From Hormiphora californensis (Eukaryota > Animalia > Ctenophora), in assembly GCA_020137815.1 (NCBI GenBank), contig CM035350.1, forward strand, positions 1,116,001-1,180,000: a stretch of DNA of 64,000 nucleotides, written 5' to 3'. Shown here in pieces: positions 14,134-61,475 of this stretch. Within the stretch, counting starts at the first letter, position 1, and each line of letters opens with the position of its first letter. The notes under the pieces were generated by a model. That model was not told the origin of the DNA. It was given only the letters and a program-made list of their open reading frames with translations, and made no database searches. The translations under genes and the position numbers were made by a program.

Positions 14134-23111
<8,978 letters not shown>

Positions 23112-23924
23112 AACATCCTGTTAAACTATACATGTCGTGTTAGGATGATCAAGGAACTGATAACATTAGAAACCAAGAACACCTTGATCTGGTTCGTTGT
23201 TTCTCTGTTCTAGTGATGGTCACGAACTTGTAGTCCGAACTGCACTAGGTGGATGAGGGCGTCATGATTGGCGAGACAAATTGTATGTCGTCAGCAACAG
23301 GAGGTTGATTAATAAGGGGCGAGAAAAAAAGTGAACAAAGGGTAGAGAAAAAGAGTGAAACAAAACGATAGTTCTATAGAAAAAAAAGATAAAGACTAGA
23401 TTGAAGATAAATGCGAACGTATGACATAAAGAAATGAAGGGGTACACAGAAAGTTAAGTGGATTTTATAGCCAAATATAGTATAATTCAAGTATTAGGAA
23501 TCGTAACTGGTTGAGTTGAGAATATTCTTTGTTAAATGAGCAGAACGGAGAACCAATACGGCGATATTTTAATTTGTCTATCATTCACGTCAGAGAAATA
23601 ATTTAGTGATATTACGAATGTAGCCTGGATACAACGACGAGAAAGTGCAAGCCATTTTGTCCAACGGTTTGCCAAGAAAACAATACTCGACGATAAACAT
23701 CATTAAATGACATATTCTATCATTTATATCATCTCGTATGAGCTACACCCGTGTGTTTAATGTTCAATATAACTCATTGAATGAGTGTGTAAATTTTGTG
23801 TAATCGGGTTCTTAGCGATCAAAGAAATGAAGGTAAGTTTTGGTGCCAATTTTTCCGTGACCGACGCTCGTAAGACATTATTTTTTATTATTATTAAATC
23901 TAAAAATATATACATTGCATTATA

Positions 23925-24688
23925 ACGGGTGACAACTAAAAATCTGGACAATTTTCTGTGAGCTCTAGCGCCGGCCCCGCTTGAGATACAGCTTCAGGCC
24001 AGTGATAGAACGATTTTTCAGACAATTTTGAATCAGAATAACACAACTGGAAAAACTAAAAAGTTCATTTTCATTGCGATATCGCATCATTTCCTCTTGA
24101 CCCACCAAAGCATGTAGTACTTGAAATTTACACACTTTTCTAGCACCTCTAGCGCCTGTTATTTTTGAGATACAGCTTCGGGGCAGCGATAGAATGATTT
24201 TTCAGACGATTTTGAACGAAATTAACTTTGTTTCACACTCCGATAATCTCAATTCTAATCACAGAATCATCTGTAACAAACCCTTCAAAGCGTAGTTTAC
24301 AGGTAATTTGAGAAATCGCCATTTTGACGATTTCTCGAAACATTTATGACTTGGAAAACCAACTTCCTGATAAGCTAAATTGTTGAAACTTGGCAGTTAT
24401 GTTGGTTATGGCATGAACAACCATTATTTCAAATTTGAGAATTTTATGTCATCGGGAAGGTCGTTTCTGATCACACGGAAATCTCAAATCTCCGTACACA
24501 TGCTTTGGTGGGTCAAGAGGAAATGATGCGATAACGCAATGAAAATGAACTTTTTAGTTTTTTCCGTTGTGTTATTCTGATTCAAAATTGTCTGAAAAAT
24601 CGTTCTATCACTGGCCTGAAGCTGTATCTCAAGCGGGACCGGCGCTAGAGCTCACAGAAAATTGTCCAGATTTTTAGTTGTCACCCGT
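23925..24688. mobile_element. Tc1/mariner-type MITE with ~190-bp TIRs
   Basis: TA|ACGGGTGACAACTAAAAATCTGGAC...GTCCAGATTTTTAGTTGTCACCCGT|TA. Confidence 0.88.
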
Positions 24689-25115
24689 TAATCAACATAT
24701 ACGCCCCTTTTTGTGGGCAATTTGGATAGTCCTTTCTATTTAAAATGCAATGGTTAGAGTTCACTTAGCCACATTTGATGACCCCCTTAGGTACTAATCC
24801 AATAACGTCCATTCGGAGTATCTCGTTTTAGTTCTTTCAGAGTATCAACAAGAGATTTCCGCTCTCGCTGTTCGTATGGTGATAGGTCGGGAGAGAGAAA
24901 AACGGATGAAAACTTCTCTGAACTCTGTAGCTGCTTTGCTTTCCGAAGAAGCTGCAGCAAGGATTCTCTTCTTTCAAGGGTGACGATAACAGGTCTCGCT
25001 CGGTTGTGGAGGTCACGACAGGTTTCTCATTTAGCTCAGCAAAGATATCCTGAACTTCATGATCAGTAGCCCTGGCAGTTGGCATACGTTGCAGGCCCCT
25101 TATAATATAATATAA

Positions 25116-25610
25116 GGGGCCTGGAGGGAATACCGCGCTAGGGGGGAATACATAATCAATCATATCTCCGGTTCCAGATAAGGTACAGAAATCGTTTTGG
25201 TAGCGTTGGAAAGAGAAAGATAACAGCTTTCAAATGCAACCGGTTGCAGGTCTCTATCTTATCAGGAACAGAAGATATGAACCAAACTCCGCAAAATCGA
25301 GTGCGGTAAAATAAAAAATTCGAGATTTTAATTCAAATTTGAAACAAAGTGTCCCTGCATGGACCTGTGACGTCACTTTTTGAAAACAACCAATCTTTGA
25401 ACGGTTATTGCTCAGCCTCCTGAAGTCCAATTAACTCCTCTCAAAAACAGCAAGGTAGATAATTGTCAGATCTAACAGCTAGTGAAAGAATCAAGTCAAA
25501 CGGACTTCAGGGGCCAAAGTTATAAGCACCGCCGTTTTTTCGCTCGCAAAGTTATTTTCGACCCAGCCGGGCTCAGGCCAAACGCGCGCGCGGCATTCCC
25601 TCCAGTCCCC
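25116..25610. mobile_element. Possible non-autonomous element bounded by a 23-bp imperfect inverted repeat
   Basis: GGGGCCTGGAGGGAATACCGCGC vs GCGCGGCATTCCCTCCAGTCCCC; no clear target duplication. Confidence 0.45.
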
Positions 25611-26248
25611 TCGTTGCGGGGGTGCGCGCATGAGGGGGCTGCAGCGCATTCCAACCCTGGCAGTGGTTTCTGGAAGCCCAAATAAAACCAAATTCAGCTT
25701 TCTATCCGGAGTAAGACAACTAACACTTTAATTAACTTAACTCCACTAATACTTAAAGTGTTTAAAGATACTTTTTCCATGATATGCATCGTGTAAGACT
25801 TCTGGAGGCCTGCTTGCGAGTTGCGAGGCTGAAGGGAGAAGAAGAAAAAGTTCTCAAGAAAAATTTCAAAAGTTCTGAAAATATTTTTTCTAAAAAAGCT
25901 ACAACGCGCAAAGCAGCGCTGTTTAAAAGTTTCTGCCGCCGCCGATTAACTGTCGCCGCGCAGAAAATGTGCGAATTAAAAGTTCAGAACTTGAAACTTG
26001 AAAAATATGAACGCGAATTTAACAGCAGCCGAGGCCCCGAAAGTTATCAGCTTATCCTGAGCTGCTCAGCCTCAGGCCTCAGTTAAACAAATTGAAAAGT
26101 GCTGTCTTATCCCGCACTTCGCATCTCAATGGGGTTTGTAGCAATATCCAAGTAATCAAATTTTTCACGGCCCGATTTTGTCGCCTATCGTACTTTATCT
26201 CTCCGGTCTCTCCCCCCCCCCCAACCCGTTTTCCATTTTGTAAGCGAT

Positions 26249-26806
26249 ATGGCGATATCTCGATATTTAAAAAAGTCGAAACTTTTCTATGGATTTATCA
26301 ACGTTGCATTCAATCATTACGACAAGGAGAGAGTTAATAAAATAGGTCCTGATGCTGCGGCAGCCGAATGGCTTCTGAAAAATGAGGGATCAGTTAGAGG
26401 CAGGGGATTCAGTACATGGATAGAGGACTACAGCGGAGTTTCTGTCTGTTACACCCCCTCATTCAAAATAGCACAGATTAAAGCAGTGGATGCCGATATT
26501 ACCTCTGGTGGTTGTGAACATTTCAAAGGTTTAGATTACCTCCAATCAGTTACCCTCACCGGCTGTGTCAATATTGGGGACCATGGTCTACAGTTGATCT
26601 GTAGATATTGCCACAAGACTGTGGAGACCATTGATGTCTCCGGAACTGGGGTGTCAACATCTGGACTAAAACATTTACTTGCCTGTTCAAATCTCAAGTC
26701 GCTGACGCACGATCAACGGCTATGTTATTCAAATGAACAATTGTACAGCGAAACTTTGAAGGAGTTGAAAGAATTGAATAAGGAGTTAGAAGTTGTTGTT
26801 TTGTGA
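26249..26806 (+). CDS. ATP5S: ATP synthase subunit s / factor B-like mitochondrial LRR protein, single exon
   Basis: FYGFINVAFNHYDKERVNKIGPDAAAAEWLL resembles the factor B motif FWGWLN.VFN..D..RI...GPDRAASEWLL, followed by LRR-like repeats. Confidence 0.85.
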   Translation: MAISRYLKKSKLFYGFINVAFNHYDKERVNKIGPDAAAAEWLLKNEGSVRGRGFSTWIEDYSGVSVCYTPSFKIAQIKAVDADITSGGCEHFKGLDYLQSVTLTGCVNIGDHGLQLICRYCHKTVETIDVSGTGVSTSGLKHLLACSNLKSLTHDQRLCYSNEQLYSETLKELKELNKELEVVVL

Positions 26807-26876
26807 TTACATTATTGTTCGTCTGACTTAACCCAATCCTGGAAAACTATTCCTCAAAATAATCCCTTATATAGCA

Positions 26877-28458
26877 ATGACAACGCGGCCCCTGCCCGTT
26901 CAGCCACAGTTCAAGGAAGGGAGTGACGAAACTCCAGTGAAGGGGGACAAGAAGAAAGGGCGTAGGAAAAAAGCAGATCCTGCAAAGTATGATGATGGTG
27001 ACAAGGTAAACGTTTTTCCTAACTGTTTTTCATTAATTACTTTTCAATCAAAAAGTTATTCTTCAGCGCAAGTCACACCCTAAATCCCTATCAGGGTGAA
27101 GACACGTATGACGAGTATTACGAGCCATGAGCTAGTTGAAATGAGTGGAGGGTTTACATCCTAAACTGGGAGACAGTGTGGAGCCACTGAACAGTCAGGC
27201 AGCAGCTGAGGCAGCGGCAGATTTGGCACTCAGTGCCATCAGATCGGGACGAAGACACAAGAGCACTCCCAAACACCATGATTACGAGAAGATTCACACA
27301 TCAGACAGAATGCCAAGGTAAGTTACACATTCAAGGAATTAACTCGTGGTGTAATGTTCGTTGTAGAATGCTCATTACCAATATTTCCCCCAGTCCATCG
27401 GGTAGGAGGGCAGCAGCCAAGATCAAGAGGATGTCCCAGGAGGTTAAGAACTGGAAGGAGGTGGTAGTGGATGGGGATCAACAGGGCCAGATAGTGCACC
27501 ATGAGGGCCGTCTACCTCACACCTCATCCCCCAAATCTGGGGCTAGGAAAAAGAAACCTAAAAAGAGGTAAGATAGTTCTTTCATCCTCTATCTCTGGCC
27601 ACAAACCCTTTCCACTGTTATTGTTTCCTTTATAAACACTCCATTCTCTACCAGGGACAGGCCAGGTGCAGTGTCAGCGTATGAGGAGAGTGGGTTAGAT
27701 GCCCTGATAGACGAGGCAGATGTCATATCCCATGTCCCTGAGAAGGGAGCGGGGGATGACGCCCCTAAGATGGGAGGTGTTAGTGCTGGGGTGGTGTACC
27801 ATGAGAAGGATGATGGCACTGGGTTCGTCAGGAAGAATGTGAACGATCAGGAGAGCACTGTGAACCTGGTCGAGAGGAACACAATTATAGAGTTGTCCAC
27901 ACTGGATGTTTCATATTCCCTCCAAAACTGGTTCTTTGTATTCTCCCTCTTTATCCACGGTCTTCTAGCTGGTTTTGCCGCATGGCAGACCCTCCAGATC
28001 TACATTGAGAACAAGTCCTAACCTGGACTTCCTGACTGAGTACAAGAGTCTCGCCTGGCCAGCTGCCAGCGCTTACTTTGTGTGTACCTGCTATCTGTAC
28101 AGTCAGTTCCCTGGATATTCTGGAGGTCGCCCTGTCACATTCCAAAGAGGACATCCTAGGAGGTCTCATTCGGTTCCCTACCCACACCCTCACAGTCTCA
28201 TTCTATGTGTTAGCACTCATTCTCACATGTGGTTTAGCATCTATTGATGACAAGTTGTCTCTCTACTCCATTGATAACTCTCTATGGGAGGATGCTGCAA
28301 GTGATATCCAGATGTGGAAGATAATCAATACTCTCAGGATGTTCTTCTCTGTCCTGGGTTTCCTGTTGCTGTGTTACTGTTTCTTGTTCTCTGTGCGACC
28401 CACTAAGAAGGTTGTACATAATAACACCCAGATTATCAGCACACCTTTCAGAAGTTAG
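26877..28458 (+). CDS. TMEM237: TMEM237-like ciliary transition-zone membrane protein (multi-exon, frameshifts near 28020 and 28080)
   Basis: Basic, disordered N-terminus then four hydrophobic segments including SLFIHGLLAGFAAWQ and FLTEYKSLAWP, matching the TMEM237 pattern. Confidence 0.72.
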
Positions 28459-28915
28459 GACACTGTTGTGGAGGTACACATTGTAAATACAGTAGATAAA
28501 CTATACATTTAGTGAGAGAGGGAGATTCAGAGAGAGTGAGGTATTGTCTCTCTAGTTAGTAGAGAAGTGTGATGTTGACTGGTTCACGACTTTTAAAGGG
28601 CTGTACAGGGTTTCACAGAGTGATTATCTTATTTTGACTGAGAGTGCTGCCGCAGAGAGAGTGTGGAGTTTATAACATGATGTCACATATATTCAAGTGT
28701 TTATTTTTGTACATTACATACACCATATTATATTATGCCACGTTTCAGAACTGTGTCTATACAACTACTACTACTTCTCTCTCCCCCGTGTCTCATCAAT
28801 CACCCTCTACCCCCGCTTTTTACCCCAATATCTCTTCCCCCATGCTATGTCGACCCCACTTTTTACTACTATCTGTTCCCCACCTTTTACCACACTCCAT
28901 GTTGTAGCTAGTCCG

Positions 28916-31900
28916 ATGGGAGGGGAGAAGCGACCAGTAGAAGAGGAGCTCAGTGATGAGCTGACAATAACACCCCTGGGAGCTGGCCAGGAGGTCGGCA
29001 GATCCTGTATCCTACTCCAATTCAAGGGCAAGAGAGTACTGTTAGATATTGGTATTCACCCTGGTCTATCTGGGTTAGAGGCACTACCCTTTATTGATGT
29101 TATTGATACCAGCCAAATTGGTAAGGGACCAGGCTGGGAGTTGTGTGATTAATTGATATTACCATTACTTCCATTAATTTTGTGTTGTAAGACAGCACCC
29201 CCTAACATCATTCTCTCCCCAGATCTCCTTCTGGTGTCACATTTCCATCTTGACCATTGTGGGGCACTACCCTACCTACTGGAGAAGACTAGTTTCAAGG
29301 GTCGCACCTTTATGACCCACGCTACTAAAGCCATCTACAAGTGGCTACTGGCTGATTACATCAAGGTCAGTTCCCCAGAATAATACTTGTTGAATATTGA
29401 ACTGTAATTTGTCCATAATTGTGAGTTTTAGATGTACACGTGAGTAGTGAGTACCCCAAAAAGTTGTAACAGTAATGAGTCCCCAGTAAAATTTACCATA
29501 TTAAATCTTAACTCACTAGGTCAGCAACATCACATCCCCCTCCCACTAGGTCAGCAACATCACATCCCCCTCCCACTAGGTCAGTAATATCACATCCCCC
29601 TCCCACTAGGTCAGCAACATCACATCCCCCTCCCACTAGGTCAGCAATATCACATCCCTCTCCCACTAGGTCAGCAACATCACATCCCCCTCCCACTAGG
29701 TCAGTAACATCACATCCCCCTCCCACTAGGTCAGCAACATCACATCCCCCTCCCACTAGGTCAGCAACATCACATCCCCCTCCCACTAGGTCAGCAACAT
29801 CACATCCCTCTCCCACTAGGTCAGTAATATCACATCCCCCTCCCACTAGGTCAGCAACATCACATCCCCCTCCCACTAGGTCAGCAACATCACATCCCCC
29901 TCCCACTAGGTCAGCACCCAGTGCCCCGAATTTCAGAAATCTAAAAAAATATTTTTCTATGCCTTCAGCTAGGCTGCAAGATTCTATTCGCTAGGCTGCA
30001 AATTTTTGCTCGGTCTCGGCTGCTACGCAGCCTCGACCTCGCGACGTACGTCAGCATCGTAGAAGTTGGGCTAATAGAGAAAAAAAGTACCATTTTCGGC
30101 GCAAAATCATCGTGCAGCCCAGAATAGGAAAATTTCCTCAAAATTTTCTGCAGCCGGGCTGCAAGAATTTCGACACCGAAATACATATGTATTTCACACT
30201 CTAATGAGGGGGATGGATATGTGACACCATTCTGGGACGCCCTGTTAGAGCATTGGCCTGACAGGGGACGCCTAATTAGCAAAATCATCGTGCAGCCCAG
30301 AATGGGAAAATTTCCTCGAAATTTTCTGCAGCCGGGCTGCAAGAATCTCGACACCGAAATACGTATGTATTTCATACTCTAATGAGGGGGATGGATATGT
30401 GACACCATTCTGGGACGCCTTATTAGCACTGTTAGCCAATACGGGATATATATACACAAGTGATTCGGGGAAGCTTATATTTCATATTTATATTTTCTGC
30501 AGCCCGGGCTGCAATATCAGTCGAGGTTATTTTATTTAGGCTGCAAAAAATCAGTCAGGCTGCAAATATTTGCTCAAAAAATTACACGGGTTTGCAATAT
30601 CGGGGCACTGGGGGTCAGCAACATCACATCCCCCTCCCACTAGGTCAGCAACATCACATCCCCCTCCCACTAGGTCAGCAACATCACATCCCCCTCCCAC
30701 TAGGTCAGCAACATCACATCCCCCTCCCACTAGGTCAGCAACATCACATCCCCCTCCCACTAGGTCAGCAATATCACATCCCTCTCCCACTAGGTCAGCA
30801 ACATCACATCCCCCTCCCACTAGGTCAGTAACATCACATCCCCCTCCCACTAGGTCAGCAACATCACATCCCCCTCCCACTAGGTCAGCAACATCACATC
30901 CCTCTCCCACTAGGTCAGTAACATCACATCCCCCTCCCACTAGGTCAGCAACATCACATCCCCCTCCCACTAGGTCAGCAATATCACATCCCTCTCCCAC
31001 TAGGTCAGCAATATCACATCCCCCTCCCACTAGGTCAGCAACATCACATCCCCCTCCCACTAGGTCAGTAACATCACATCCCCCTCCCACTAGGTCAGCA
31101 ACATCACATCCCCCTCCCACTAGGTCAGCAACATCACATCCCCCTCCCACTAGGTCAGCAACATCACATCTTCCCTCCCACTAGGTCAGCAACATCACAT
31201 CCCCCTCCCACTAGGTCAGCAACATCACATCCCCCTCCCACTAGGTCAGCAACATCACATCCCCCTCCCACTAGGTCAGCAACATCACATCCCCCTCCCA
31301 CTAGGTCAGCAACATCACATCCCCCTCCCACTAGGTCAGTAACATCACATCTTCCCTCCCACTAGGTCAGCAACATCACATCCCCCTCCCACTAGGTCAG
31401 CAACATCACATCCCCCTCCCACTAGGTCAGCAACATCACATCCCCCTCCCACTAGGTCAGTAATATCACATCCCCCTCCCACTAGGTCAGCAACATCACA
31501 TCCCCTCCCACTAGGTCAGTAATATCACATCCCTCTCCCACTAGGTCAGTAATATCACATCCCCCTCCCACTTTTGCAACCACATCTTCCCTCCCACTAG
31601 GTCAGTAATATCTCCACTGAGGACAGGGGTGTTCTCTATACAGACAAGGATCTGGACAACTCTCTCGATAAGATTGAAACCCTCAACTTCCACGAGGAAA
31701 AGGAGGTACTTCTGTCTGTACCATAAACAGTCATGTCAAGTACTGTCTGGTTCTATCATGCAGTTCACAGTTGTTCACATTTTAATAATTTCCCTATCAG
31801 GTTAATGGTATCAAGTTTTGGAGCTATAACGCTGGTCACGTGCTGGGGGCGGCGATGTTTATGATTGAAATCGCTGGAGTGAAGATCTTATACACAGGTA

Positions 31901-32594
31901 GATATACCAAGAGATATATAGAGATTATATTAGAGAACCAGAAGGGGTTAAAAATGATATCTTAATGAGAGGGGAGTGGTACTTTGTTTTTCTTTCTCTC
32001 AACTCCCAACCTCCTCCCAGGTGATTTCTCCCGAGAAGAGGACCGTCATCTGATGGCTGCAGAGGTTCCCAATGTCCGTCCTGACATCTGCATTATAGAG
32101 AGCACGTACGGAACCCACATCCACGAGAAACGAGAAGTGAGGGAGGCTCGGTTCACCCAATCTGTCCACGAGACCATTAAAAGGGATGGAAGATGTCTGA
32201 TTCCCGTGTTTGCCCTGGGTAGAGCCCAAGAGTTGATGTTGATTCTAGATGAGTACTGGGAGGCACATCCTGAGCTACACGATGTACCCATTTACTATGC
32301 ATCATCCCTCGCTAAGAAATGTATGGCTGTTTTCCAGACATATGTTAACGCGATGAATGAGAGGATTAGGAGGCAGATATCCATCAACAACCCTTTTGTG
32401 TTCAAACACATCAGTAATCTGAAGAATATCGACCAGTTCCAAGACATTGGTAAGTATTGTTGTATAGTGCAGCAATATACAGTCAGCACTGTGTGTGGTA
32501 CATTTCACACGCATTTACATGTAGCATGAGAATATTATGCATAAAACGATGTCCTCTATCTCTATACTTCTCTCTATATTTCTCTCTCTCTCTC

Positions 32595-32684
<90 letters not shown>

Positions 32685-34697
32685 CTCATTAAAGAATGGG
32701 TGTGTTATGTAGGCGCGATTTGAATTACAAGTCTCTCTCTAGCTTGCTCCTCCCTCTGACCAAAACAAGGTCCTACCTTCATTCATCAGTAGGCCCTAAT
32801 AACCCAACAATATTTCTACACGTTCACCTCCCCCTCCGCCGTTATATATGTGAGAGTGTCTATTTTCTTTTCCGCTCAGGAAAGATTCTCTCAGTGCCTC
32901 TCCCAGGTCCTCTCTCCCCTAATACTTACTTTCCTTCTTCCCCTGCCAGGTCCCTCAGTGGTAATGGCATCTCCAGGTATGCTCCAGAGTGGTCTCTCCC
33001 GGGAACTATTTGAAACATGGTGTCCAGACCCCCGTAACAGCGTCATCATTGCTGGGTACTGTGTCGAGGGTACCCTTGCCAAGATGATCATGTCTGAACC
33101 AGAGGAGATAGTATCTGTAACAGGACAAAGACTACCCCTGAAGTGTTCTGTGAACTACATTTCATTTAGTGCACACACTGACTACAATCAGACCAGTGAG
33201 TTCCTAATGTTGTTGAAACCAGCCCATATTATCCTGGTACACGGGGAGCAGAGTGAGATGCAGAGGCTGAGGACCGCTCTAAAGAGGGAGTATGAGGATA
33301 CACCTGATCCTGCTGAGATATTTGCACCTGCTAACAATGAGGAGATCGTGCTGAACTTCAGGGGAGAGAAAATGGCAAAGGTAGCTATGTCCTTGTTGGT
33401 AACTGTCATTGTTTTTTTCTGTTTTTTTCTCGCGTTCTTAGTGTCAGGTAGCGGAGGTAGATCCATGCACTATTTTAATTGTTTTCCTATTTACACCATG
33501 TTTAGCCAATGCTACAATTTACCTCTCCCCCACCCCTAGATTGTGGGTAGGCTGGCGGCTAAGAAGCCTAAAGCAGGAGACAAGATTAGTGGAGTGTTGG
33601 TAAAGAGAGGATTCAACTATCATATTGTCAGTCCAGACGAGTTGGAACATTACACAGACCTGAAACAGGGTGTTGTCCTACAGAAACAGGTGACACTTGG
33701 GTCTTGGGAACACTGAACAGATTGTAATGTGGTCATGTATCTGGCATTCTGTATAATATGGCAGTCTAAATTAGTTACCACCAGTTGTCAATAACAAACC
33801 ATCCCCTTCTTCCCCAGACGATCCCGTTCACTGCCCCCTTCTCCCTTCTTCATCACTGTCTCCAACAACTTGCTGGCACTGTTGAACAGAGTGAAAAGGG
33901 AAGCCGGAGTTGCCTGAAAGTGTTTGAAAGTGTGAGTTCGGGGGTATTTAGGTTGTATAAGGATGACATTGCGATCATGCCTTGAATTCTCTAGTTTTTT
34001 TGAAAAGTTACAAAAACTCGACAACTTCCGAGTTCGTTCACTATGTTTTGTTTAGGTGACTGTACAGCAAGAACACAACAAGATATCGATTGAGTGGGAA
34101 GGAAGTGAGATGGGGGACATGTATGCCGATGCTGTTCTCACATTGTGTCTCCAAATTGAGGCAAACCCCCAGGCTATAAAACAGAGCTCTCTTCGTAGTA
34201 TCACAAAGGTACAGAACCAGTTTTATAAACCTCACATTTAACAAAATTACTAGGTATCCCATCCACCACAAGTGTTCTAACTCCCCCTCCCCAACTCAGG
34301 GCCAAGACAAGAGTTCGTTTGAGGATCGAGTTGAGAAGTTGATGATAGAGCTGTATGGAGAGGATAATGTTAGCTATCAACCGAAACTAAAATACATTAC
34401 AGTCACCCTGGACAGCCACAAAGCAGTCATCAACCTCAAATCTTACACAGGTGAGACATCATAATTCTTAGCAGTCTAAGTGTACGAAGTCACCCCTATT
34501 ATTGCGTGAGCTTTCGCGGAGGGGTAATTTCATTACCAAGTGTACAACTTAGATAATAGGTAGTACATCGTTAAACTACCTTCCCCCTTCCAGTGCAATG
34601 TGCGAACGAGTCTCTACACCAGATGGTATCTTCAGCAATACGGCGACTTCACAACGCTCTTACACCCGTCAATGTTCCGATAATACCCGCCACGTGA
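28916..34697 (+). CDS. CPSF3: Cleavage and polyadenylation specificity factor 73 kDa endonuclease (MBL/beta-CASP), ~11 exons
   Basis: [78 protein letters not shown]. Confidence 0.97.
29514..31612 (+). repeat. 30-bp minisatellite (~45 units, GTCAGCAACATCACATCCCCCTCCCACTAG) filling CPSF3 intron 2
   Basis: Direct reading; two blocks (~29514-29916 and ~30613-31571) plus the real acceptor at 31600, which shares the unit sequence. Confidence 0.97.
29917..30612. mobile_element. Non-autonomous DNA transposon inserted in the 30-bp array
   Basis: TIR CCCAGTGCCCCGA / TCGGGGCACTGGG with 8-bp duplication GGTCAGCA; internal direct repeat with ~180-bp period. Confidence 0.85.
32581..32680. repeat. (CT)n microsatellite in CPSF3 intron
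   Basis: Direct reading. Confidence 0.95.
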
Positions 34698-34948
34698 GAT
34701 AGACAAATATAACCTGCCTATTATAAAGTAGTCTATATTGGATGGAGAGAGAGACTAGGTGTTTGACAAGGTTGATTGCACCCCTATTTTAACTATTTAT
34801 TGTTGTTTTTTCTTATTTTAACGTTTTTACAACAGACTCTTGTATTGATTTATTGAACTCTTACATACATTTTCAAAACACCGTTGTTTTACTATCTCTC
34901 TCCTCTCTACAAACCCCCTAACCCCTCTATTTACCTGTCTAGCATTCT

Positions 34949-37900
34949 ATGAGAGAAGGACGAGATGAGAGGACACTGAAAAGCTCGAGACGGTATCAAC
35001 TGAACACATCCCCTCCCACCAGCACCATCACGCCATCCTCCAACATGAGACGGGAGGAATTCTCAGTGGGTGATCTGGTCCTGGCTGATTTCCCTGGCTG
35101 CAGCTGGCCTGCCCTGGTGACGAGTGTCACCACACGACACCTACAGGTGGTCACCCTGATCTCTGAACAAGAGGAGACGGTGACACGGGAACATGCCCAC
35201 CTTTTCAAGGGTTCAGATCACCTCAGACAGAAACTCAGCAGCCTCACCCCAGGACAGAGACACGAGTTTGCTGATGCGGAGGCAGCCCTGAAGACTATGA
35301 GTAGGATGAATAGAGAGGAGAGGATGGAGCATATGAGGTGTAGGAAGCAGCCTGGGGAGGAGAGTGGATCAGCTGCTGGAGGGGGTGGTGGGTTCAAAGA
35401 GAATGTGAGGAAGCTGCCTTGTGATGTGGATGATATAACACTGGATGGGAGCCACTTGGAGCAGATAATGAATGGTAAAGATGGCCACCCCTCTCACAAC
35501 TCCCCACCTACACCAGAGATGTCCCTACCCTCTCAGATGAGGGGAGATGTAGACCCCGTACCAGGTGCTGCTGCCTCCTCTAAGATTAGTGCCAAACAGC
35601 AGAGGGATGAGAGCTATATTGTTAGTACAATGGAGCAGATAAACAAATTCCACCAGATACCCGCCCCTGTTCCCCTGCCCCCTCCCACTACAGAACCATC
35701 TCCCAACAAGAAGCCACAAGAGGAGCACACGATGAGCAAGTTGCTAACTGATCACCTCAAGGCTACCCGGGCTGCTCAGAAGAAAGCTCTGAAGATCCAT
35801 GCAAATGTTACCTTTGAAATCGTCCAAACAACAGAGCGGAATCCCTCCAAGCGGGGCCGGAAACCCAGGACAAGCAGTAAAAACACCTCTAATAGATCGA
35901 GGAACACCCATCACCCCCATCACCTTCCCTCGCCAGAACAGATTGTAAATGCCCTGAAAGCAGTGCCACCCCTGGTGGATGTGAAACCAGAACACTTCCT
36001 CCCTCCACCCCCCACACACCATGGATCACCCCTCAAACCATCACCCCTCAAACCAGTCCCCCTATCCTTCTTCAGTTCCCCTCCACCGCTACTAAAGGCA
36101 CCCTCTTATGTCAAATCACCACCCATCATCCCCACCCCAATTATAAAACCTGAACCTATCATGGCCACCACCTCCCCGGAGTCTCTGAAACTGATAGCCC
36201 AGTTGAAACAGAGTCCCAGTCCCAACAAGATAGCTCCTATCATAGTGATACAGCCCAGTCCCAACAAGAAGAAGTTGTTACTTCAACAACAACAGCAGGC
36301 TGCTAGACGGCCCCGGGGTCGACCTAGAAAGAACGCTGCTACAGCTGCCCCTCACTCCCAGGAGGAGTTCTCCCTCGAATCTCTACCCACCATGGTTAAC
36401 ACTTCCAAACTGACGAGCCCACCAAGAGCACTCTCTCCTCCTCCCCCAGCCCCAGTGGTTAAATCACCTTCTCCCCCACCACAGCAGATGATAACCCCAA
36501 CTCCTCCTCCTGCCTCAACATCACGATCAGGAATTGTAATTGAGTTCCCTACTACTGCAGCACAACCCATTCTAGACCCGGCTCCACCTGCCAATGATAT
36601 TGTCAGTTTCCTGATTCCATACTACACCGCTACCTTCCCTACAAAGAGCAGGGAGGAGCTAGAGGCGGCAATAATCGAGGATTTGGAGTTACTGAGTGAT
36701 GGAGAGAGGGATATCTTGTTCAAACTTGCCATGGGTAGCACGAGGACGGCCAAGAAGCGAGGTGAAGAGATTATCTCTAAACTTCTTGATAAAACCCCAG
36801 CTCTCCCACCTCCCCCTACCATTACTCCAGCCCCTACTATCAAACAAGAGCCCATTGAGGCAGTCCCCCCTGTAGTGGTCGAGAAGAAACCCAGACCGTC
36901 CACCAACAAGCGCCGTAAAGAGAACGCCCCTGCTCCACCACCCCCTCCTACAATCAAAACAGAGTTTGATGTTGAGCACTTTGCAGTTCTTCTCTTTGTA
37001 CGAGACATGCAGGACCAGGGAACTGATTTATCGGAACTACGATGGAGCCAAGTTGAGGAGAGGGAGCTGTATACTAAACTAGCTGAGAGGTTAGCGGGAC
37101 TGAGTGTGGAGGAGAGGAGGGTTGAAACTGGTGCAATGGAGGTATTTGTAAGAGAAACACCTGCTATGAGTCGACCTATGTGGAGTGAACTGAAAGTGAC
37201 TAAACAGAAGAAGTATAGGAAGGAAGCCCAGAAGGAGGGACTATCTCTTGAGATGAGTGATGGGAATAGGAAACTTGTGGAGAAGTTGCTGAGATCAGCA
37301 GAGAGCAGGAAGAGGAAGAGGGAGGGAAGTGAGAAGACAGGGTCAGATAGTCAGAGTAGTGGCGGTGGTCCTAGTGGAAAGAAGGAGAGGGGAGATAATG
37401 GTGGTGGAGGGGGAATTGTCCAGGACTTTTTCTGTATGGACTGTTTCACTCTAGGTAAGTGTACCTGATTGAGATGGGAAGAGTGTTTGCGAGAGAAAGA
37501 ACGGGAGAGAGGGTAAGAGTTGGTGTGAGAGAGAGTGGGGTTTAGAGAATTTTCCAGATCATGTTTCCCATGTATATGTGATAACACATTCTATTACCAG
37601 ACTACAACAGTAAGCATTATTCGACCTGTGCCGACTGCCACGCCATCTTCCACAGAGCTTGTCTGGAGAACCAATCAAAAACATCAAAAAACAAGTAAAT
37701 GAAAGGAAATTTGAAATTAGGTTAGAGTAAACATAAAAAACATCGATTCTGAGAGAGAAAAACTACAAAACTAACACGCCCCACCGCACAGTAGGTTGCT
37801 GTGTAGAGAGTGCCAATCTGGTGAGATATGTGGTATCTGCAGGAAAGGAGGGGAGTTAAAAATGTGTTCCCAGTGCCCACACAAGTACCATGAATCATGT

Positions 37901-40900
37901 GCCCTCCCTCACATGTCTACACAGGTACTAGCTGGGTGTGGGACCCTCATGCTGGGAGTACACTGGAGTCAATACCAGTGATCTTATTACACCAAGTTTT
38001 ACATTCTCCTCCTAGATGTGTTACGTCATCTGCTTTACCTCAATCTACTAACCCATCCCTTTATTTCAGACACTAGCTGGTGGCAGCAAGTTTATCTGCC
38101 CCTATCATGTGTGTGGGAGCTGTGAGGCGAGGAGTCAGTCTAACATTAAAACCTTTGTCCGCTGTGTCCGCTGTCCCCTTTCTTTCCACGAGAACCATAT
38201 CCCTGCTGGATGTATGAGGATATCAAAGAACCATATCCTGTGTTATAGGTAAGCAGGGCTGTCAGAAGTTAGAACATTGTCTTGTTAGTAGATGCATTGT
38301 CGATCTCTGTCATGTGAATTAGGTATTTCCTTGAATATAATGTAAAATATCTTTCTCTCCCGCATTGTACACAGCTGTGTGTGAGGGAAGGTAGCACTTT
38401 GTATGTGTTTCCGTGTGTACAGAGCAATAGGGAGAGACGGGTGAGAGAGAGAAGGGTGAGGGAGAGAGAGTTTGTGTGTTGGTGAGAGAGAGATGGGTGA
38501 GAGAGAGAGAGAGTGTGTGTGTGTGTGTGTTTGTGAGAGAGGCGGCATTCTTAGAAACATACCCGCGCTCGCTTTCCCTGCAGTTGTGTGTGCGGCCAAC
38601 TCATAGCAACACGCATCCCTTCTTTTCTTTCTCTCTCTCTATCTCTCTCTCTCTATCTCTCTCACCTTCATTCTCTCTAGTAGTATTGGTATGCGAGAAA
38701 GTCAAAGGGTATGCACATTATATGCGAGTATTCAGAGGAGTATTCTATGCCCCCAGTTATACACTAACCCCGCCCTCTTTTATCAGGCACCACAGAGGGT
38801 TCAATAGCAACACCCAACCAACCCAGGGGAGAGAAGAAAACCAGGCAAAACGAAAAAGGAAAACTAAAACCAAAACACGAAAACCTCAAGTGCACATAAA
38901 TGTATCATTTTGTTTCCAGTGTACATTTGGAGGGGAATTGTTGTGTTGTGAGTGGTGTCCAGCCGCTTACCATAATGAATGTATGCCTGAGGAAAATCGA
39001 ATGAGAGAAGGTACTAGGGAGAATATTCTTGTTTTTAGTAAACGTGGTCTAAAGTTAGGAGAAAGTACTCCAGCTTTTAGTTGACCTGTTATTTCTAATA
39101 TATTGGCACTAAACAGACTGGTAGCCTGATTTATTCTATCAAACACCTAACCACCCTCTCTCCAGGTGAAGCATCGTGGGTCTGTCCTGACTGCATTGTG
39201 GGTAAAAAGCCATTCACAGACGACGTTGTTTGGGTGAAATTTGGATCGTACAGGTAAGTGAGAGGGGTAGCGGGGGGAGCGGTGCGCGGTTTAAAATGAA
39301 ACCACACTTTTCAGCAATCTCATGTGCGCGCAGTGTCTTGTGTATTACACACACAATATAGAATGTGTACTAGAAGAAGGAGGCGCGGGATGTCTCTCTG
39401 TTATAATACACAGTGTACATTACACAGAGAGAGGCGGGGTCCGGGGAGAGAGTGTTAATACACACAATGTCTCCATCTCACTCACTCTCTATCAGGTGGT
39501 GGCCATGTCAAGTAATGGACGAGATGGATCTACCAGATAACATATTCGCCCTGCCCCACAAACCCTGCCAGTTCCCAGTACAGTGTCTGGGCTCCCAGGA
39601 CTATGCCTGGATCGATGTTAGTCGTGTCTATCTATATGAAGATGGAGATAAGGGGTCTAGTAACAGCGGATCAATACCTGGTAGCTTCAAAACTGGTAAG
39701 ATTCTCTCTCTGATATGAGTTTTTGCTCAAGTCTTAACTTTAACCTCTTGTCTAGCCATAGTTTCTGGAATAATTCACAATAGTTTAACTACCTCCTATT
39801 CTTTACTAACCCGTCTACAATTCCCATTCAGCACTAAGAGAAGCAATGGAGCTGCACGCTGAAGTGAAACCCATCAAGCAGGCCTTGTTACTGGAAACTG
39901 TTACAGCTGATAAACCTAGCTCCAGAAAACCAGCTCCCTTCAAGTTTATTAACAAAAATGTACCATACTGCTCCACTATGCGAGAATATGAGAAACAGTT
40001 AAAGCTTGAAAGGATGCCATTTCCCTGTGATTGTACAAGAGAGGAGAAGTGTTCAGCGGAGAGTAACTGTATTAACCGTGTTCTACTAACTGAGTGTCCC
40101 CCAAGTATGTAGCAGTACTGCCAAAATTACCAGAATAAACGGAACCAGTAGTTGTTGTAGATAAACTAATCAATGTCTCCCTCTACCTCTGTAGAAACAT
40201 AATAAACTAATTCATGTCTCCCTCTCTCTCTAGAAACACAATAAACTAATCCCTCCTTTCCTTTCTCCAGGCTGTCAATGGGCGGGAGAGTGTGAGAACC
40301 AGCGGTTTCAGAGGCGCTCCTATCCAGATACAAAACTAGTTAAAACAGAGGGAAGGGGTTGGGGGATGATAGCGTTGGAGGAGATTAAGGAGGGAGAGTT
40401 TGTTCATGAATATGTTGGAGAGATTATAGACGAGCAGGAGGTTGCAAGGAGGTTACAGCTATACCAGGCTACTGGAGTTACCGACTACTACATTGTGAGT
40501 ATTGTGAGAGTTGTCTTCCTAATAACATCCCTTCGTTTGCTTTGTGCGGCTGGTAGTGGAGGGGTGACAGCATCACCAACCCTGCATACATGATGATGTT
40601 TGAGTTCCTAACACACAGTTTTTGTTACAGCTGACTGTAGAAACATCACGGATTATCGATGCCAAACCGAAAGCTAACAATGCCCGCTTTATGAATCACG
40701 CCTGTGATCCGAACTGTGAAACCCAGAAATGGAACGTCTGTGGGCTAACCTGTATTGGACTGTTTGCGAAGTAAGGAAATAAATAATAGGATTTTCAGTG
40801 AAGAATCTTTAAATGTAATTTTCTTGGATTATTCTAATTTCCTGTTATTCTAACTCTTTTTCTCCCCAGGCGTACAATTGCAGTGGGCGAAGAGCTAACA

Positions 40901-41372
40901 TTTGATTACCAATTTGATACCCGAGGTGAGGAGAAGAAGGCATGCCTGTGTGGGTCTGTCAACTGCAGTGGGTATCTGGGGGTACCAGCCAAGAAGACAG
41001 AGGAAAAGAAACGAGAGAAAATGCCTTCTAAGAAGAAAAACAAGAAAAAGGTCCGTTCTATTTCCCTTTTCTCATTGCCCTTTTTTCCTCTATTTGTCAT
41101 CTGGTTGTCTATTGTACCCATTTTGTAACAGTTCACATTGTCTCTAACCCCCTCTTCCCTCTACACAGAAGTCAGTTGGAAGACCCCGACGGAAGCCACA
41201 AGATGCCCCTGCCACCCCCTCCTCCTCCACCGCCTCTACACCTGCCCAAAGTGACTCCAACACAGCCAGCAGTGTATCCGGGGCTACCTCTGCAGTCAGT
41301 AGTACTACAGGGGACGATATAGAGGACGATCTACTGAAGATTAATGCAATAGTGAACGGAGTGGACTTGTAA
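34949..41372 (+). CDS. NSD: NSD-family histone H3K36 methyltransferase (PWWP-like, AT-hooks, PHD fingers, PWWP, AWS, SET, post-SET), ~12 exons
   Basis: [15 protein letters not shown]; PHD motifs ([15 protein letters not shown]); [13 protein letters not shown]; [49 protein letters not shown]. Confidence 0.9.
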
Positions 41373-42491
41373 CACACATAGAGATACTTGATGTTGAACT
41401 GTTATCTTACAAATATATGTTATCGAACACTCCACTTTTAGAATACAATGGTGTGGTGTATTTAATAATAGTATATCAAACTTGAATTAGTTAATTGCGA
41501 GGGTCAGAACGTGTCAGGGGGTGCTATTTGCTTACCTCAGGGCATTCTTTATTATATATATATAGCAGGTTTTTGTTTGGGATATTGGATAAGGGAACAG
41601 TTTATACGTCTTTATAACTCGCTATGAATTCTAGTAAAATGGGGTTAGATGAGAAGTGATCGAGATCAAATGTTATTGGAACGCTGTTTTCGTTAGTTTA
41701 GAAGATTAATAAGTCCCTCACTTTTATGTTTATTCGAGGTTTCCCTTGCCTAGCTAGACTGTGTTTCGCGCACCCCTTTATAAATGTAAAGGAGGGTTAG
41801 AACATAACAAGGTTTCCCATGGTACTAGCTCATTCAGCTCATAAGACGTGACCCCCGCACCGAATTGTTGGAAAGAGCTCATCTTGCTCAAACACGCCTT
41901 TTGGTACACTCTATCGTATAACTGTCTGACGACTCCGTTTTGATCCGCGATAGTGCACCTAGATCGTGTCGGCGTCACCAGAGAGTCTTATTAGGGGATG
42001 AGCTATGACCATGGAAATTTTGGGATAACTGTAAGTGCTATAATTGTTGTTTGGGGTTTGCTAAAGGTATTGTTGGTTTATCTAACATGAGGGTAATTTT
42101 GATCTGCCTCGTTTGGAACTATATCTCTCTCTCTAACTTATTTTCTGCTAATTGTGTTATGTGAACATCCCATGCTAAGTATTTTTACCCCTATTAAAAT
42201 AAACGTGTTTCACTTCGCCAGGAATGGTTGTTGAGTACTCAACAAGAGAATGGTGGCCGTGGGATTTGGATGGGAGCCAAAAATGGCACCTTTCATTTTT
42301 CAAATGAGGGGGTTATTTTGCGAACAAGCTGAATACACTCAGGGCAGCTTGCAGCAGTTTTTCTCTCAGCGGTTCATCCTAATTTCAAACCCTCTCACAT
42401 TTGACAGCAGCAGCGGCTGTCTCTAAGTGAGATGCTTGCACACTAAGTAACACACACCCTCCCCCCTCTCTGTTATTTCCTTGTTTTGAAG

Positions 42492-43552
42492 ATGCAAGCC
42501 TCTACAAGTTAAACTAACTCCACAGCAACTAGCTGCAATCCGCTCTGCGAACAACCCTCCCCCACCACCTGCTAGCAACTCTCCCTCTCTGACCCGGATT
42601 CTTGGATCCAAGCCAGACCAACTGCTCTCACCCCCGGCCACCCAGCACCTCAAACTAACCCGCTCATGAGTCAGGTGATACCTACACGGTGCCTGGGAGG
42701 AGGAGCACTGCTAGCTCCTCAGTGGACAATGTGGCGGATAGGAAGACACCCCTGGCATTCAGGGGTGTCAGGATTAAAGAGACGGTCAGCAGTTCTAGTG
42801 GCACTCTCCCCACTACCACTTCAGGGTCTGAGAAAGCTTGTTGTAGTGTGACAACAGATGTTACTACAAGTCTGAACAGCCCTGGAGAGGAGTCAGGAAG
42901 GGGCAGGATAATCAGGCGGAAACCCATCTACAAGACACCCAAACCTGTCCAGAGGGATCTGGGTATGGACGATGGAGAGATCAGTGAGATACTCCTGATG
43001 CCCAACAAACCACCGTTTCAACTGCCCAAAGTGGAATATCCAAAGGTGCAGCATAATAGGGCGACATCTAGTCTGTGAACGTCACTATTACTATTAGTCA
43101 CTGTCAGTCATTGTTGAGTAAGGGGGAAGAGTGTCTCACACTCTTCCCCCTTACTCAACAAGTCAGTCATGGGTAGAGCCACTAGGACAAATAGTCCATA
43201 TAGGGTGTAGTCCTAATCTGTCTCAGTATTTCCTTCTAGTACCATATTGATTAGATCATGCCAATCTAATCACTGCACTGACCCCCTTCCAACATCATGC
43301 CAGTGAATCACTGACACCCTTCCAATTACACAGGTCCTGAAGATCAGTATGCTGGACGAATTGAGGCGCAATAAACGTACTAACGCCATGTTTTCTGGCC
43401 CCGCTGCACAGCGGGAACTGACTACCAAGATAACCGAGAAGCAACCCCCTCAAGAAGAGGAAGACCTGGGGGAGGTAGACCTGGCAGCCCTGAAACAGAA
43501 CCTGGATAATGTCTATGAGAAACTCCAGGAACTGTCTAGTATCATTGGTTAG
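42492..43552 (+). CDS. Unknown Pro/Ser-rich protein with C-terminal coiled coil (last two exons; 5' exons unresolved)
   Basis: ORFs 42689-43044 and 43334-43552 joined by a plausible GT-AG intron; no recognisable domain. Confidence 0.4.
43111..43161. mobile_element. 51-bp perfect hairpin mini-MITE
   Basis: 24-bp perfect stem, 3-nt loop, flanked by 8-bp direct repeat GTCAGTCA. Confidence 0.8.
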
Positions 43553-44531
43553 GTGAATAGAACCAGACCCAATGTTTTTAGGAAACATGCCACGCTTTGC
43601 TGAATATATTATTTTACCCTTTCCATCCAATTAACAATTAAAATAGTCGATTGTTTTGGGTATAGAAGGAGAAAATGAAATAAAGACAAAAACAGCACAT
43701 TAAATTGGAACGACTTCGAACAACTTTCATCGATTCGATGATCGATTTTGACCCAAAAACCCCAAACTCTAGCCGTTTCATAGAGAATATTTGTATGGTC
43801 GTTTCCGAGGAGCAACAGAATACAAATGTGTCCCAAAGTGTTCTTTCAGATTCCAATTCCAATCCTATTCAATTCTTCAATGCGTATCATGATACTATTT
43901 TGTTTCTAGCTCGTATCGTATCAAACGTAATAAAATATCCCTAGAAATAAAAACTGGCTCTCACACAAACAGGCGTGTAATAGACACACACATGACCCTA
44001 ATAGATAATAATAAAATGAATCACAGGCGGCAGTACAAGATAGTAGATTACTTGCTATAGGGTAACTTCACACCATTTGTCCCAGACCCCTCACCGTTCT
44101 GATCGAGGAAGGGCCTGGAGAGTAGGCCAGACAATCCTTGACTCAAACAGAAGAAAAATTCCATCACACTTCCACAGGCAACTCATCAAAATTCAAAAGG
44201 TTACACTCCACAACTCACACAAAACTCTCAATACAATAACACTCATTTTTCCTACCGCTCCGATCGACTGCTCGAAAGTTGCAGATTACCATAAATAATG
44301 CCTTCATAATCAAAGGTAATAATTTTAAACAAACAAATAGATAACTTCTTATTATTTTATGCCCTAGGATAATAATGTGGATAATAATAAACACCAGAAA
44401 TCAGAATGACAGTCAGTGCTCTCTGGAGACTGGTCACACTGCTGCTGCAACAGAGGTAACCGGATCACCAAGATATGTCTACTTGGTTATCACGACTACC
44501 TCTATCTAGCCCGGTATTGTTCAGTGTCTGT

Positions 44532-45040
44532 CTAGTTCATACAGCAATTGTTACAGGGGCAATTGTTCCCTGGAACAGCCCCTGGTGGTATCCGCCTCAT
44601 CACCACAGGGGGACCTGCTGCAGGGAGGGGGTGGTGCTCTGGTGGGACTGGTAACGCAGCAGCATGGGCAGGGCTGGTGTGAGCTGAGTGGGTTCTAACA
44701 GGTACACTGCCATGTCTCACAGCCGGTCTAGCAGCTGCTCCAGTGTTCCAGTAGGAAGATGGGAGAAGGACTGCAGAGGAATAGGCACTGTCACCTGATA
44801 CACTCCCTGAACTCAGACTGATGTTACTGTGCATGCTCCTGTCTCTGTGGTCGGCAGCGGTAGAGTGGTGGAAGGAAGAGGGAGGGAGGTGACAGGTACA
44901 CTCTTCCCGGAATATGGCTGAGCAGGAGGACCTGAGATAGCTGATTGGGGGACCAGATCCTTGAACAACATTGTTTTGTACTGCATCAGGAGCACTGTTA
45001 CTGCGCCTGGGGGGATAGGATGTTTTAGAGGTGGGGTTGT
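44532..45040 (-). CDS. Pro/Ser-rich terminal exon, possibly the last exon of the SAM-domain gene
   Basis: Acceptor TCTGTATTTCAG at ~45041 followed by an open frame to the stop at 44532. Confidence 0.4.
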
Positions 45041-45185
45041 CTGAAATACAGAGAGGGGAATGAATACTTCAACAATAATACTGTTTGGAGATGGTGGAGG
45101 CTGGTGGGGTAGTATATCTTGGTTCCATTGTTCACACCAATATTGTTGGAGGCCGGAGGGCGCGATATGACATTGAAGACGCTCA

Positions 45186-45226
45186 TTTATTAGACGTTTC
45201 GGCTGTACGGCCATTATCAATAATGC
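45186..45226 (-). ncRNA. Minimal type-I hammerhead-ribozyme-like motif (U3-A8 variant)
   Basis: Minus strand reads ATTA-TTGATAA-T-GGC CGTACA GCC-GAAAC-GTC-TAAT. Confidence 0.6.
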
Positions 45227-45410
45227 TATGGGGGAATTTACATTAGCACATTACATAAGACATCAATATGTACATAGGGGACAAAATTGTAAAAGACTGG
45301 ACCAAACGGCAAACACACACAACATAAACAGAAGCCAAAAACAACAAACAATCGAATCCACGATACTGCTCCTTCATAAAAAACTCTTATTTACATTAAT
45401 TTACACATGA

Positions 45411-46726
45411 AATATAATAATAATAATAATAATATCAGCATTTATATACACGCTCAGACCCCGTAGAATACTAGAAATTAAAAATCCTAGTAACACGGAG
45501 CATCAGAGCGGTTCACCTTTGCTGCAAACCCTTAAAAAATATATTAAGTTATAATGTCTATAATAATCCAGTTTAATGTCCAGTGCTCTGATGCTCAAAA
45601 ATCTGCTCACAAAACCTAGCAATTCATGTATAATCAGTCCCACAGTCCACACACACACGCCCACACACTCAAATCACCACCTCCACCACCTTGCCTCCTC
45701 TGATCCCAAAGGTCTTCCCAGGTTTCTCCTCCTTCCTCGCCCTCAGGTCAGCAACCAACTTCCTCCTCTCCTCTCTCTCCTCGGGAGAACGATCAGGGGA
45801 TATGAAAGTCTTACTGTAATCTTTAGATTTCTTCAGACTATTCTTGCAGGATAGAATTCGATCTCGGAAATGCCGGCCACTCAACCGCAGCTTTACTGGT
45901 CGGTCAGTACCCTCCTTGTACCTACCGAGGCGCTCCATACCCCAAACATCGGTAGTACACTCACCCATACAATCAAAAAGGCGTCTAACATCTATATCCA
46001 AATCGTGGTTGTTCTCACTTTTACAATCCAACAACCCATGGACAATCACGTTGCTCATCCTGTCGTCTGTTGCACTGCTAATTGCTGTGCTGATTCGCTT
46101 AGGAGCCAGGGCAGTGTCGCATTGCTTCTTGAGGACAGAAGAAAAGGTCTTAATTTCCTCTTCTGCTGTAGACTGTACTGCAGAGATCTCCTTATCTCGC
46201 TTCTCCAACAACTCGCACTGCAACTTAACAAGCTGTCCTTGGGCCTCCACCAATCCTCTCTGAGAAGCAACCAACTCCTCTTGACTATCCATTAGCCTCC
46301 TTTCACTGTCCTCAACTTCATTACTAAGACGATCAAGCAGAGGGTAACATCTCTCCATCAGGAAATGACACACTTTCTCTGTGAAATCCTCTAGTTCTGG
46401 CTTCTTTATCCCCTTGATCTTACTCTTACTGGGACACTTTAAACTATCCCACACACTACGTCCGGCAGTCAAACTTTTAGGGAAGGAATCCTTAATACCA
46501 GCATGAGTAAACAGGTCCCGTACCAGGTCAAATAGCTCACCCTGCACTTCACCATAAACTCTTCTCTGTACCCTTTCATCGCTATACACTCTCAGCCGGT
46601 CTTTGAAACTACAAGCAGAGGCTGTACTACCACTCATAGCAGGAGAGATAGATATCTCACAATTAGAGAGATTCGCAACGGTTCACAAGCAAAACAGAGA
46701 TAAGGGAGCTCTGACCAAATGTGATG
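45411..46726 (-). mobile_element. ORF1-only non-LTR retroelement (CR1/L2-type ORF1, CDS 45669-46637)
   Basis: Intact 322-aa ORF: coiled coil, then NVIVHGL, ERLGRY..RPVKL, FISPDRSPEER, IRGGKVV; short 3' UTR and (TTA)n tail; no ORF2. Confidence 0.78.
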
Positions 46727-46745
46727 TAAATATTATAACAAAATA

Positions 46746-47700: not shown

Positions 47701-47721
47701 AGTTTTTTTTTTTTTTTTTTC

Positions 47722-49213: not shown

Positions 49214-49568
49214 ATGAAGGAGCAGTATCGTGGATTCGATTGAGAAAACCGCGGAGATCCATGAAGGTCAGAAGAAAAGGGCCTATGGGGAGAGAATCCT
49301 AAATGTGGAACGAGCTACCTTCACCCCACTTGTGTTCTCAACAATCGGAACATTCGGACCAGAAGCAGAGCGGTTCTACAAGCGTCTGGCTGGCCTGTAC
49401 TCGGTTAAGTCAAAACAAAGCTACAATGACGCCATTAGATACATTAGATTACGATTATCATTTTGCATCCTCAAATCAGTACTAATTCAAATTCGAGGCT
49501 ACCGAGGGTCTCTCCCATTCTATCCTGATCTAATAGATATGAATTTAGTACCTCTATTCCTTTTATAA
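49214..49568 (+). mobile_element. Second, divergent CRE-clade 3' fragment
   Basis: HEGQKKRAY..FTPLVFSTIGTFG..RLRLSFCILKS..IRGYRG, homologous to but distinct from the first. Confidence 0.78.
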
Positions 49569-54125: not shown

Positions 54126-54174
54126 ATGAGTTAATATATATATTTCTATATATTGAAATATTGATAGAAAAGAG

Positions 54175-57335: not shown

Positions 57336-58830
<1,495 letters not shown>

Positions 58831-60002: not shown

Positions 60003-61475
<1,473 letters not shown>

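Follow-up and report, generated by a model that had tools for sequence, protein, structure and literature searches.

A likely four-gene operon with spliced-leader addition in the ctenophore Hormiphora californensis

Introduction

Are neighboring genes of a ctenophore transcribed together and resolved into single mRNAs by spliced-leader (SL) trans-splicing? The question is raised by four closely spaced, head-to-tail plus-strand genes with unrelated housekeeping functions, ATP5S, TMEM237, CPSF3, and an NSD-type gene, in Hormiphora californensis (assembly GCA_020137815.1, contig CM035350.1, positions 1,116,001 to 1,180,000; this whole stretch of 64,000 nucleotides (nt) is called the window, and positions are counted from its first letter). 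Trans-spliced leaders come from an SL RNA that carries an Sm site and a hypermethylated cap. In this cluster a leader is joined to TMEM237 and CPSF3, and the four genes likely form one operon with one promoter upstream of ATP5S, a reading that is given a probability of about 0.58.

The genes are arranged as follows.

26249..26806, plus strand: ATP5S/DMAC2L (ATP synthase subunit s), single exon, 185 amino acids (aa)
26877..28458, plus strand: TMEM237, four exons; introns 27006-27094, 27318-27393, and 27568-27654; Pfam PF15383
28916..34697, plus strand: CPSF3 (CPSF73 endonuclease), 11 exons, 10 GT-AG introns, 693 aa, intact
34949..41372, plus strand: NSD-type histone methyltransferase, 12 exons, 11 GT-AG introns, 1481 aa, intact

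The stop-to-ATG spacing is 70, 457, and 251 nt, which agrees with the original prediction made from the sequence (70, about 457, and about 251 nt on one strand). The gene names given there hold as well. ATP5S, likely the first gene of the cluster, matches ATP synthase subunit s (PDB 3e2j, E 6e-19), and the other three carry Pfam domains (Beta-Casp, RMMBL, and CPSF73-100_C in CPSF3; PHD, PHDvar_NSD, PWWP, AWS, and SET in the NSD exons). ATP5S, TMEM237, and CPSF3 use the same ATG as their homologs.

Spliced-leader addition at TMEM237 and CPSF3

Two shallow RNA runs were available as contigs of mature RNA (shares 0.06 and 0.00, from which no habitat is inferred). The first, X1, is an oligo-dT metatranscriptome in which five of seven aligned records are 95-99% alike to the window. 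The second, X2, stems from a more distant relative that is less than 90% alike. Loose contig ends are listed for 11 of 13 cases at 25400-29500 and for 12 of 32 at 34040-43700.

X1 record 3 starts with nine non-genomic letters, continues with the genome from 26873, and has the first TMEM237 intron spliced out. In X1 record 7, seven adapter-like letters, which we take to be adapter, come first, followed by ten non-genomic letters and then by the genome from 28906 at CPSF3. Together with the genomic AG, the non-genomic letters equal the last 11 (TMEM237) and 12 (CPSF3) letters of the Hormiphora leader (PMC8527503). In CPSF3, the leader is joined at the AG ending at 28907 and not at AG 28911, which lies nearer the ATG. 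A 28-letter leader-like end also precedes the CPSF3 ATG in X2 record 10 (likeness judged by eye). At NSD, the alignment of X2 record 8 begins at 34941, the A of the presumed acceptor, after ten unaligned letters; the pattern is that of the two confirmed sites and is suggestive of leader addition, short of proof. Two of the four genes and two of the three downstream genes therefore bear a leader, with NSD suggestive. The acceptors are:

26220..26244, plus strand: predicted ATP5S trans-splice acceptor, AAG, 4 nt before the ATG, without RNA cover
26873..26874, plus strand: TMEM237 trans-splice acceptor AG, leader 3' end joined in X1 record 3
28906..28907, plus strand: CPSF3 trans-splice acceptor AG, leader 3' end joined in X1 record 7, leader-like end in X2
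34941..34942, plus strand: predicted NSD trans-splice acceptor, X2 contig alignment begins at 34941

The original prediction had proposed a common leader at these AGs as its check. The leader is present at 26874 and 28907 and suggested at 34942; ATP5S has no RNA cover.

The same letters would also be seen if the leader were encoded in the genome as a distant upstream first exon, common to all the genes and alternatively cis-spliced to each of them. The Hormiphora genome holds 718 leader copies, and some clusters seemingly share a first exon, which the same source suggests to be a mapping artefact of trans-splicing (PMC8527503). No leader copy occurs in the 64-kb window, including the 26 kb upstream of ATP5S (one match with three mismatches, 0.39 expected). 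Nearby cis-splicing thus does not explain the leader, and a distant shared exon is very improbable.

Acceptor signals before the start codons

The four AGs have their last letter at 26244, 26874, 28907, and 34942, leaving 4, 2, 8, and 6 nt to the ATG, and the 20 nt upstream of them contain 14, 12, 14, and 16 pyrimidines. The pyrimidine-rich AG 2-8 nt before each ATG that had been claimed is thereby found at all four genes. The chance level was taken from 2199 ATGs on both strands of the window. Any AG is found 2-8 nt upstream at 910 of them (41%), an AG preceded by 12 or more pyrimidines in 20 nt at 224 (10%), and an AG scoring at least -2 on an acceptor matrix built from 24 cis introns at 120 (5.5%). 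All four cluster starts reach both the pyrimidine and the matrix threshold. The resulting joint chance of about 1e-4 is optimistic because the thresholds were picked with the sites already seen. With scores of -1.4 to 5.2, the four acceptors lie below the cis acceptors (leave-one-out median 10.2). The ATP5S acceptor scores -1.4 (89th percentile among 8831 AGs) and reads AAG instead of YAG.

It is hardly credible that these AGs are chance occurrences or belong to ordinary introns of the 5' untranslated region (UTR), with no leader being added. Some AG stands 2-8 nt upstream of 41% of ATGs, as given above, and ATP5S and NSD formally still qualify as such cases. For TMEM237 and CPSF3, this explanation is refuted by the non-genomic leader letters at 26874 and 28907, and the gap before TMEM237 also lacks a donor.

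The original prediction had further taken an AG before each ATG as the signature of a polycistron, and this part falls. The AG marks any trans-spliced gene, it also stands before the first gene ATP5S, and it is not specific for operons because the leader is found on at least 56% of Hormiphora mRNAs, as counted in Iso-Seq reads (PMC8527503).

Intercistronic gaps and the upstream region

The evidence for co-transcription comes from the geometry of the gaps.

26807..26874, plus strand: gap 1, ATP5S-TMEM237, stop-to-acceptor length 68 nt; AATAAT at 26858; branch-like motif 47-52 nt upstream of the AG
28459..28907, plus strand: gap 2, TMEM237-CPSF3; the TMEM237 3' UTR extends to 28544 or beyond, so that no more than 363 nt remain before the acceptor
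34698..34942, plus strand: gap 3, CPSF3-NSD, stop-to-acceptor length 245 nt; middle rich in T; branch motif 25 nt upstream of the AG
23119..26219, no strand: divergent region from tankyrase to ATP5S, 3.1 kb; CpG observed/expected (o/e) about 1.1 at 25500-26400; inverted-repeat element at 23923-24690; presumed promoter region

Gap 1 is the best case for co-transcription. It has no usable donor (best score 0.1 versus 0.2-12.5 for 24 real donors), and since it is both short and donor-less, a separate TMEM237 promoter with its outron would have to lie in the coding sequence or 3' end of ATP5S. Co-transcription of ATP5S and TMEM237 is accordingly regarded as probable. In gap 2, the RNA carries the leader at the acceptor and not a cis exon, despite a donor-like GT. 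Gap 3 contains only two CpG; the X1 contig of CPSF3 aligns up to 34701 and is followed by 48 unaligned letters.

AATAAA is absent from all three gaps. The original prediction had counted its absence from the 70-nt gap toward an operon; the absence is real, while its weight as evidence is lost, since both tubulin genes of the window also lack AATAAA within about 400 nt of the stop, and the argument was rejected.

The CpG o/e in the 300 nt before the acceptors is 1.10 for ATP5S, 0.61 for TMEM237, 0.44 for CPSF3, and 0.84 for NSD, with 0.53 for the window. This contrast is a weak hint of a single upstream promoter, drawn from few genes, with the NSD value pointing the opposite way.

Two arrangements with additional promoters have to be weighed. 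In the first, the genes are tightly packed and separately transcribed from promoters of their own that overlap the end of the preceding gene, and a short outron is replaced by the leader. The leader frequency given above fits such an arrangement, as does the AG found 4-11 nt before the ATG of ATP5S and of all three minus-strand genes upstream of it; no bridging RNA is among the pieces listed, and operon calls elsewhere are contaminated by trans-spliced monocistronic genes (PMC7986045). Gap 1 argues against separate promoters, as its 68 nt would have to hold a 3' UTR, poly(A) site, start site, and outron, and so, weakly and from few genes, does the CpG depletion before TMEM237 and CPSF3 relative to ATP5S. 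Fully separate transcription is considered unlikely, though far from negligible.

In the second arrangement, ATP5S and TMEM237, perhaps with CPSF3, are polycistronic, and NSD or CPSF3 is mainly transcribed from an internal promoter. Gap 2 is the longest of the three, the CpG o/e before NSD is raised (0.97 at 34500-34800, besides the value of 0.84 for the 300 nt), and intercistronic regions of C. elegans harbor cryptic promoters (PMC5025045). The short, T-rich, CpG-poor gap 3 and the apparently persisting linkage of TMEM237 and NSD relatives stand against such a partial operon, which is judged improbable.

Linkage in other ctenophores

CPSF3-TMEM237 and TMEM237-NSD appear to be kept linked in distant ctenophores, with the shared contig being deduced from equal contig sizes. 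In Bolinopsis microptera, CPSF3 (XP_063693242.1) and TMEM237 (XP_063693350.1, XP_063693357.1) lie on contigs of equal size, 26,206,493, with accessions 108-115 apart. Relatives of TMEM237 (P0007) and of an NSD exon (P0059), with about 71% identity, are found on European Nucleotide Archive (ENA) contigs that are likewise of equal size, 2,234,742. The CPSF3 gene of Mnemiopsis is ACHWQZ_G008069. Of 286 candidates in a metagenome scan with the ATP5S alignment, one was returned; this bacterial-looking contig of high GC content (FecR-like by eye) was rejected as spurious.

The operon reading and its proposed mechanism

The four-gene operon is thus the preferred reading. Its single promoter, precursor, and poly(A) sites are modeled on established operon biology (PMC7986045). 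Transcription by RNA polymerase II would begin upstream of ATP5S, where the DNA is CpG-rich, and continue through the cluster. Each upstream mRNA would be cleaved and polyadenylated inside the short gap, and the uncapped downstream RNA would be rescued when trans-splicing at an unpaired AG adds the capped leader. Trans-splicing would extend to ATP5S and NSD. That all four genes belong to one transcription unit has even odds, and inclusion of a fifth gene is doubtful.

Several points weigh against this reading. Leader addition is so frequent in this animal family (56% of reads) that it does not imply an operon (PMC8527503). At each of the two sites, the leader is seen on a single contig; both contigs come from a mixed metatranscriptome that is 95-99% alike and stems from a different individual. 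The ten unaligned letters of the NSD contig fall outside the 12 of 32 loose ends listed there. RNA depth at ATP5S is 0 in both runs, and the inner parts of gaps 1-3 are likewise uncovered. Among the pieces listed, neither run contains a contig that bridges any gap, an absence that proves nothing in two shallow runs of mature-RNA contigs. Gaps 2 and 3 hold donor-like GTs scoring 6.3 and 4.2 as well as space for a compact promoter, and the CpG o/e of 0.84 before NSD has been mentioned. In so compact a genome, gaps of this size may be nothing unusual. The linkage in relatives is derived from equal contig sizes and not from positions. ATP5S relatives turned up on short contigs or as a gene model, none of them on a long contig, and a Mnemiopsis locus tag was found for none of the ATP5S (0/3) and TMEM237 (0/9) matches and for none of the 10 NSD matches looked up out of 244.

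The four-to-five-gene operon of the original prediction accordingly stands in part: trans-splicing occurs at two of the four named AGs, a four-gene operon is likely, with no bridging contig, and the fifth gene is doubtful.

CPSF3 is the cleavage endonuclease. Its downstream place suggests a feedback that may resemble that of C. elegans xrn-2 (PMC5025045). A wider, tentative picture, unlikely to hold in all its parts, would join these points. Ctenophores would transcribe much of their housekeeping genome as operons, with two head-to-head units in the window that share the 3.1-kb region, namely ATP5S-TMEM237-CPSF3-NSD (perhaps with the fifth gene) on the plus strand and tankyrase, alanyl-tRNA synthetase (AARS), and the gene with ATG 7654 on the minus strand. 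At some junctions the poly(A) signal would all but coincide with the trans-splice AG (the hexamers stand 11 nt ahead of the AG at 26874 and 18 nt ahead of that at 42221), and release of CPSF3 from the precursor would need its own activity, which would close a feedback loop.

Gene models and other features of the window

ATP5S is 94% identical to a Pleurobrachia bachei gene model over 54% of its length. TMEM237 pieces are 70% and CPSF3 pieces 86% identical to the Bolinopsis and Mnemiopsis proteins. By these identities the window very likely belongs to a pleurobrachiid ctenophore, near Pleurobrachia bachei. The TMEM237 frame is broken in the assembly by 1-nt insertions near 27128, 27162, 28026, and 28087-28089. 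The RNA contigs lack these extra bases, so local assembly errors are likely. Frameshifts are seen in TMEM237, AARS (9242-12327), and the fifth gene (42224-43552), and none in CPSF3 and NSD (6.5 kb of coding sequence).

Intron 2 of CPSF3 (29366-31600) contains a 30-bp tandem array at 29514-29916 and 30613-31612, interrupted by a 700-bp inverted-repeat element. The array unit consists of the intron's own acceptor and the first exon letters, giving 46 AG|GTCAG sites. Use of any upstream AG adds an in-frame stop, so that only the last AG of the array works. The unit resembles a recursive splice site, and the real donor also begins with GTCAG. Both a genuine array and an assembly artefact are conceivable.

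On the 3' side of NSD lies a further gene.

42224..43552, plus strand: doubtful fifth gene, frameshifted; AG at 42221, 2 nt before the ATG; AATAAA at 42198

It is separated from the NSD stop by 849 nt up to the AG, with a CpG-rich stretch between, and its membership in the cluster is doubtful. In the pieces scanned, neither this gene nor the minus-strand gene with ATG 7654 matched a Pfam family. Within 41373-42221, one unspliced contig of X1 matches the window letter for letter at 42002-42171, and a conserved X2 piece lies near 42146-42166; AATAAA at 42198 is 18 nt before the fifth-gene AG. The NSD 3' UTR may be 850 nt long and end almost at the next trans-splice site.

Divergent from ATP5S, a minus-strand run at 3430-23111 comprises tankyrase (ATG 23111), AARS (ATG 12327), and the gene with ATG 7654. 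In each of the three, an AG precedes the ATG by 4-11 nt; two of these AGs are weak. The AGs of tankyrase and AARS (79th-81st percentile) count little because they are weak and because an AG lies 1-12 nt upstream of 60% of ATGs. The gaps of 1.8 and 1.6 kb each contain an inverted-repeat element (0.64 and 1.3 kb), without which the second would measure about 280 nt. By its layout, the run is a candidate second operon. AARS carries an N-terminal extension of about 65 aa ahead of the Pfam domain (12120-12327, minus strand).

Two tandem alpha-tubulin genes on the minus strand (57339-58830 and 60006-61475) lack an AG in the last 12 nt ahead of the ATG and share upstream motifs, and in both an intron directly follows the ATG codon; judged by these features, they are likely not trans-spliced. 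Mobile-element remnants fill 45100-54500, including an endonuclease open reading frame (PF14529) at 51399-52322, and this nest interrupts a convergent minus-strand gene near 44400-45100.

Comparison with known systems

SL trans-splicing in Hormiphora californensis has been described (PMC8527503), and the cluster agrees with it in the identical leader 3' end over 11-12 visible letters and in the AG beside the start codon. The difference is that leaders and not co-transcription are described there; "operon" and "polycistron" do not occur in that paper. Ctenophores were listed in 2021 as having SLs without reported operons (PMC7986045). No report of a ctenophore operon was found in the literature covered, with subscription journals mostly outside the coverage and supplements unread. 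Trans-splicing itself is already known from ctenophores.

The operons of Ciona intestinalis, Oikopleura dioica, and Schistosoma mansoni are recognized by short distance plus leader and, as here, share one leader with monocistronic genes (PMC7986045). The tunicate cut-offs are 60-84 bp between gene boundaries (PMC7986045), and in the present cluster only gap 1 (68 nt) is surely that short. The precursor of the present cluster is a deduced one. In the chaetognath Paraspadella gotoi, operons consist of housekeeping-type genes spaced by less than 250 bp, of which one or more bear a leader, and no leader is specific to operons (PMC12460157). Gaps 1 and 3 stay below this limit, with 68 and 245 nt between stop and AG, while gap 2 (at most 363 nt) may exceed it, and phylum and leader are different.

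The SL2 operons of C. elegans are alike in their gaps of about 100 bp and in an RNA-processing enzyme inside the operon, xrn-2 there and CPSF3 here (PMC7986045, PMC5025045). They have a specialized downstream leader, of which there is no sign in the last 9-10 leader letters visible at TMEM237 and CPSF3 of the Hormiphora cluster.

The bicistronic RFC140-flp operon of Hydra (PMC3273482) is likewise from a non-bilaterian, and trans-splicing of its downstream gene uses an AG close to the start codon on its 5' side. There, reporters showed that the gap is promoterless and that the AG is required, and the operon has two genes, compared with the four proposed here (PMC3273482). Ctenophores are possibly the earliest-branching animals. 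If confirmed, a multi-gene operon would add a phylum near the animal base to the debate on whether trans-splicing repeatedly yields operons. Promoters and chromatin maps of ctenophores would then have to be assigned to genes in a different way. As in Hydra, the 68-nt gap could act as a bicistronic cassette for transgenics.

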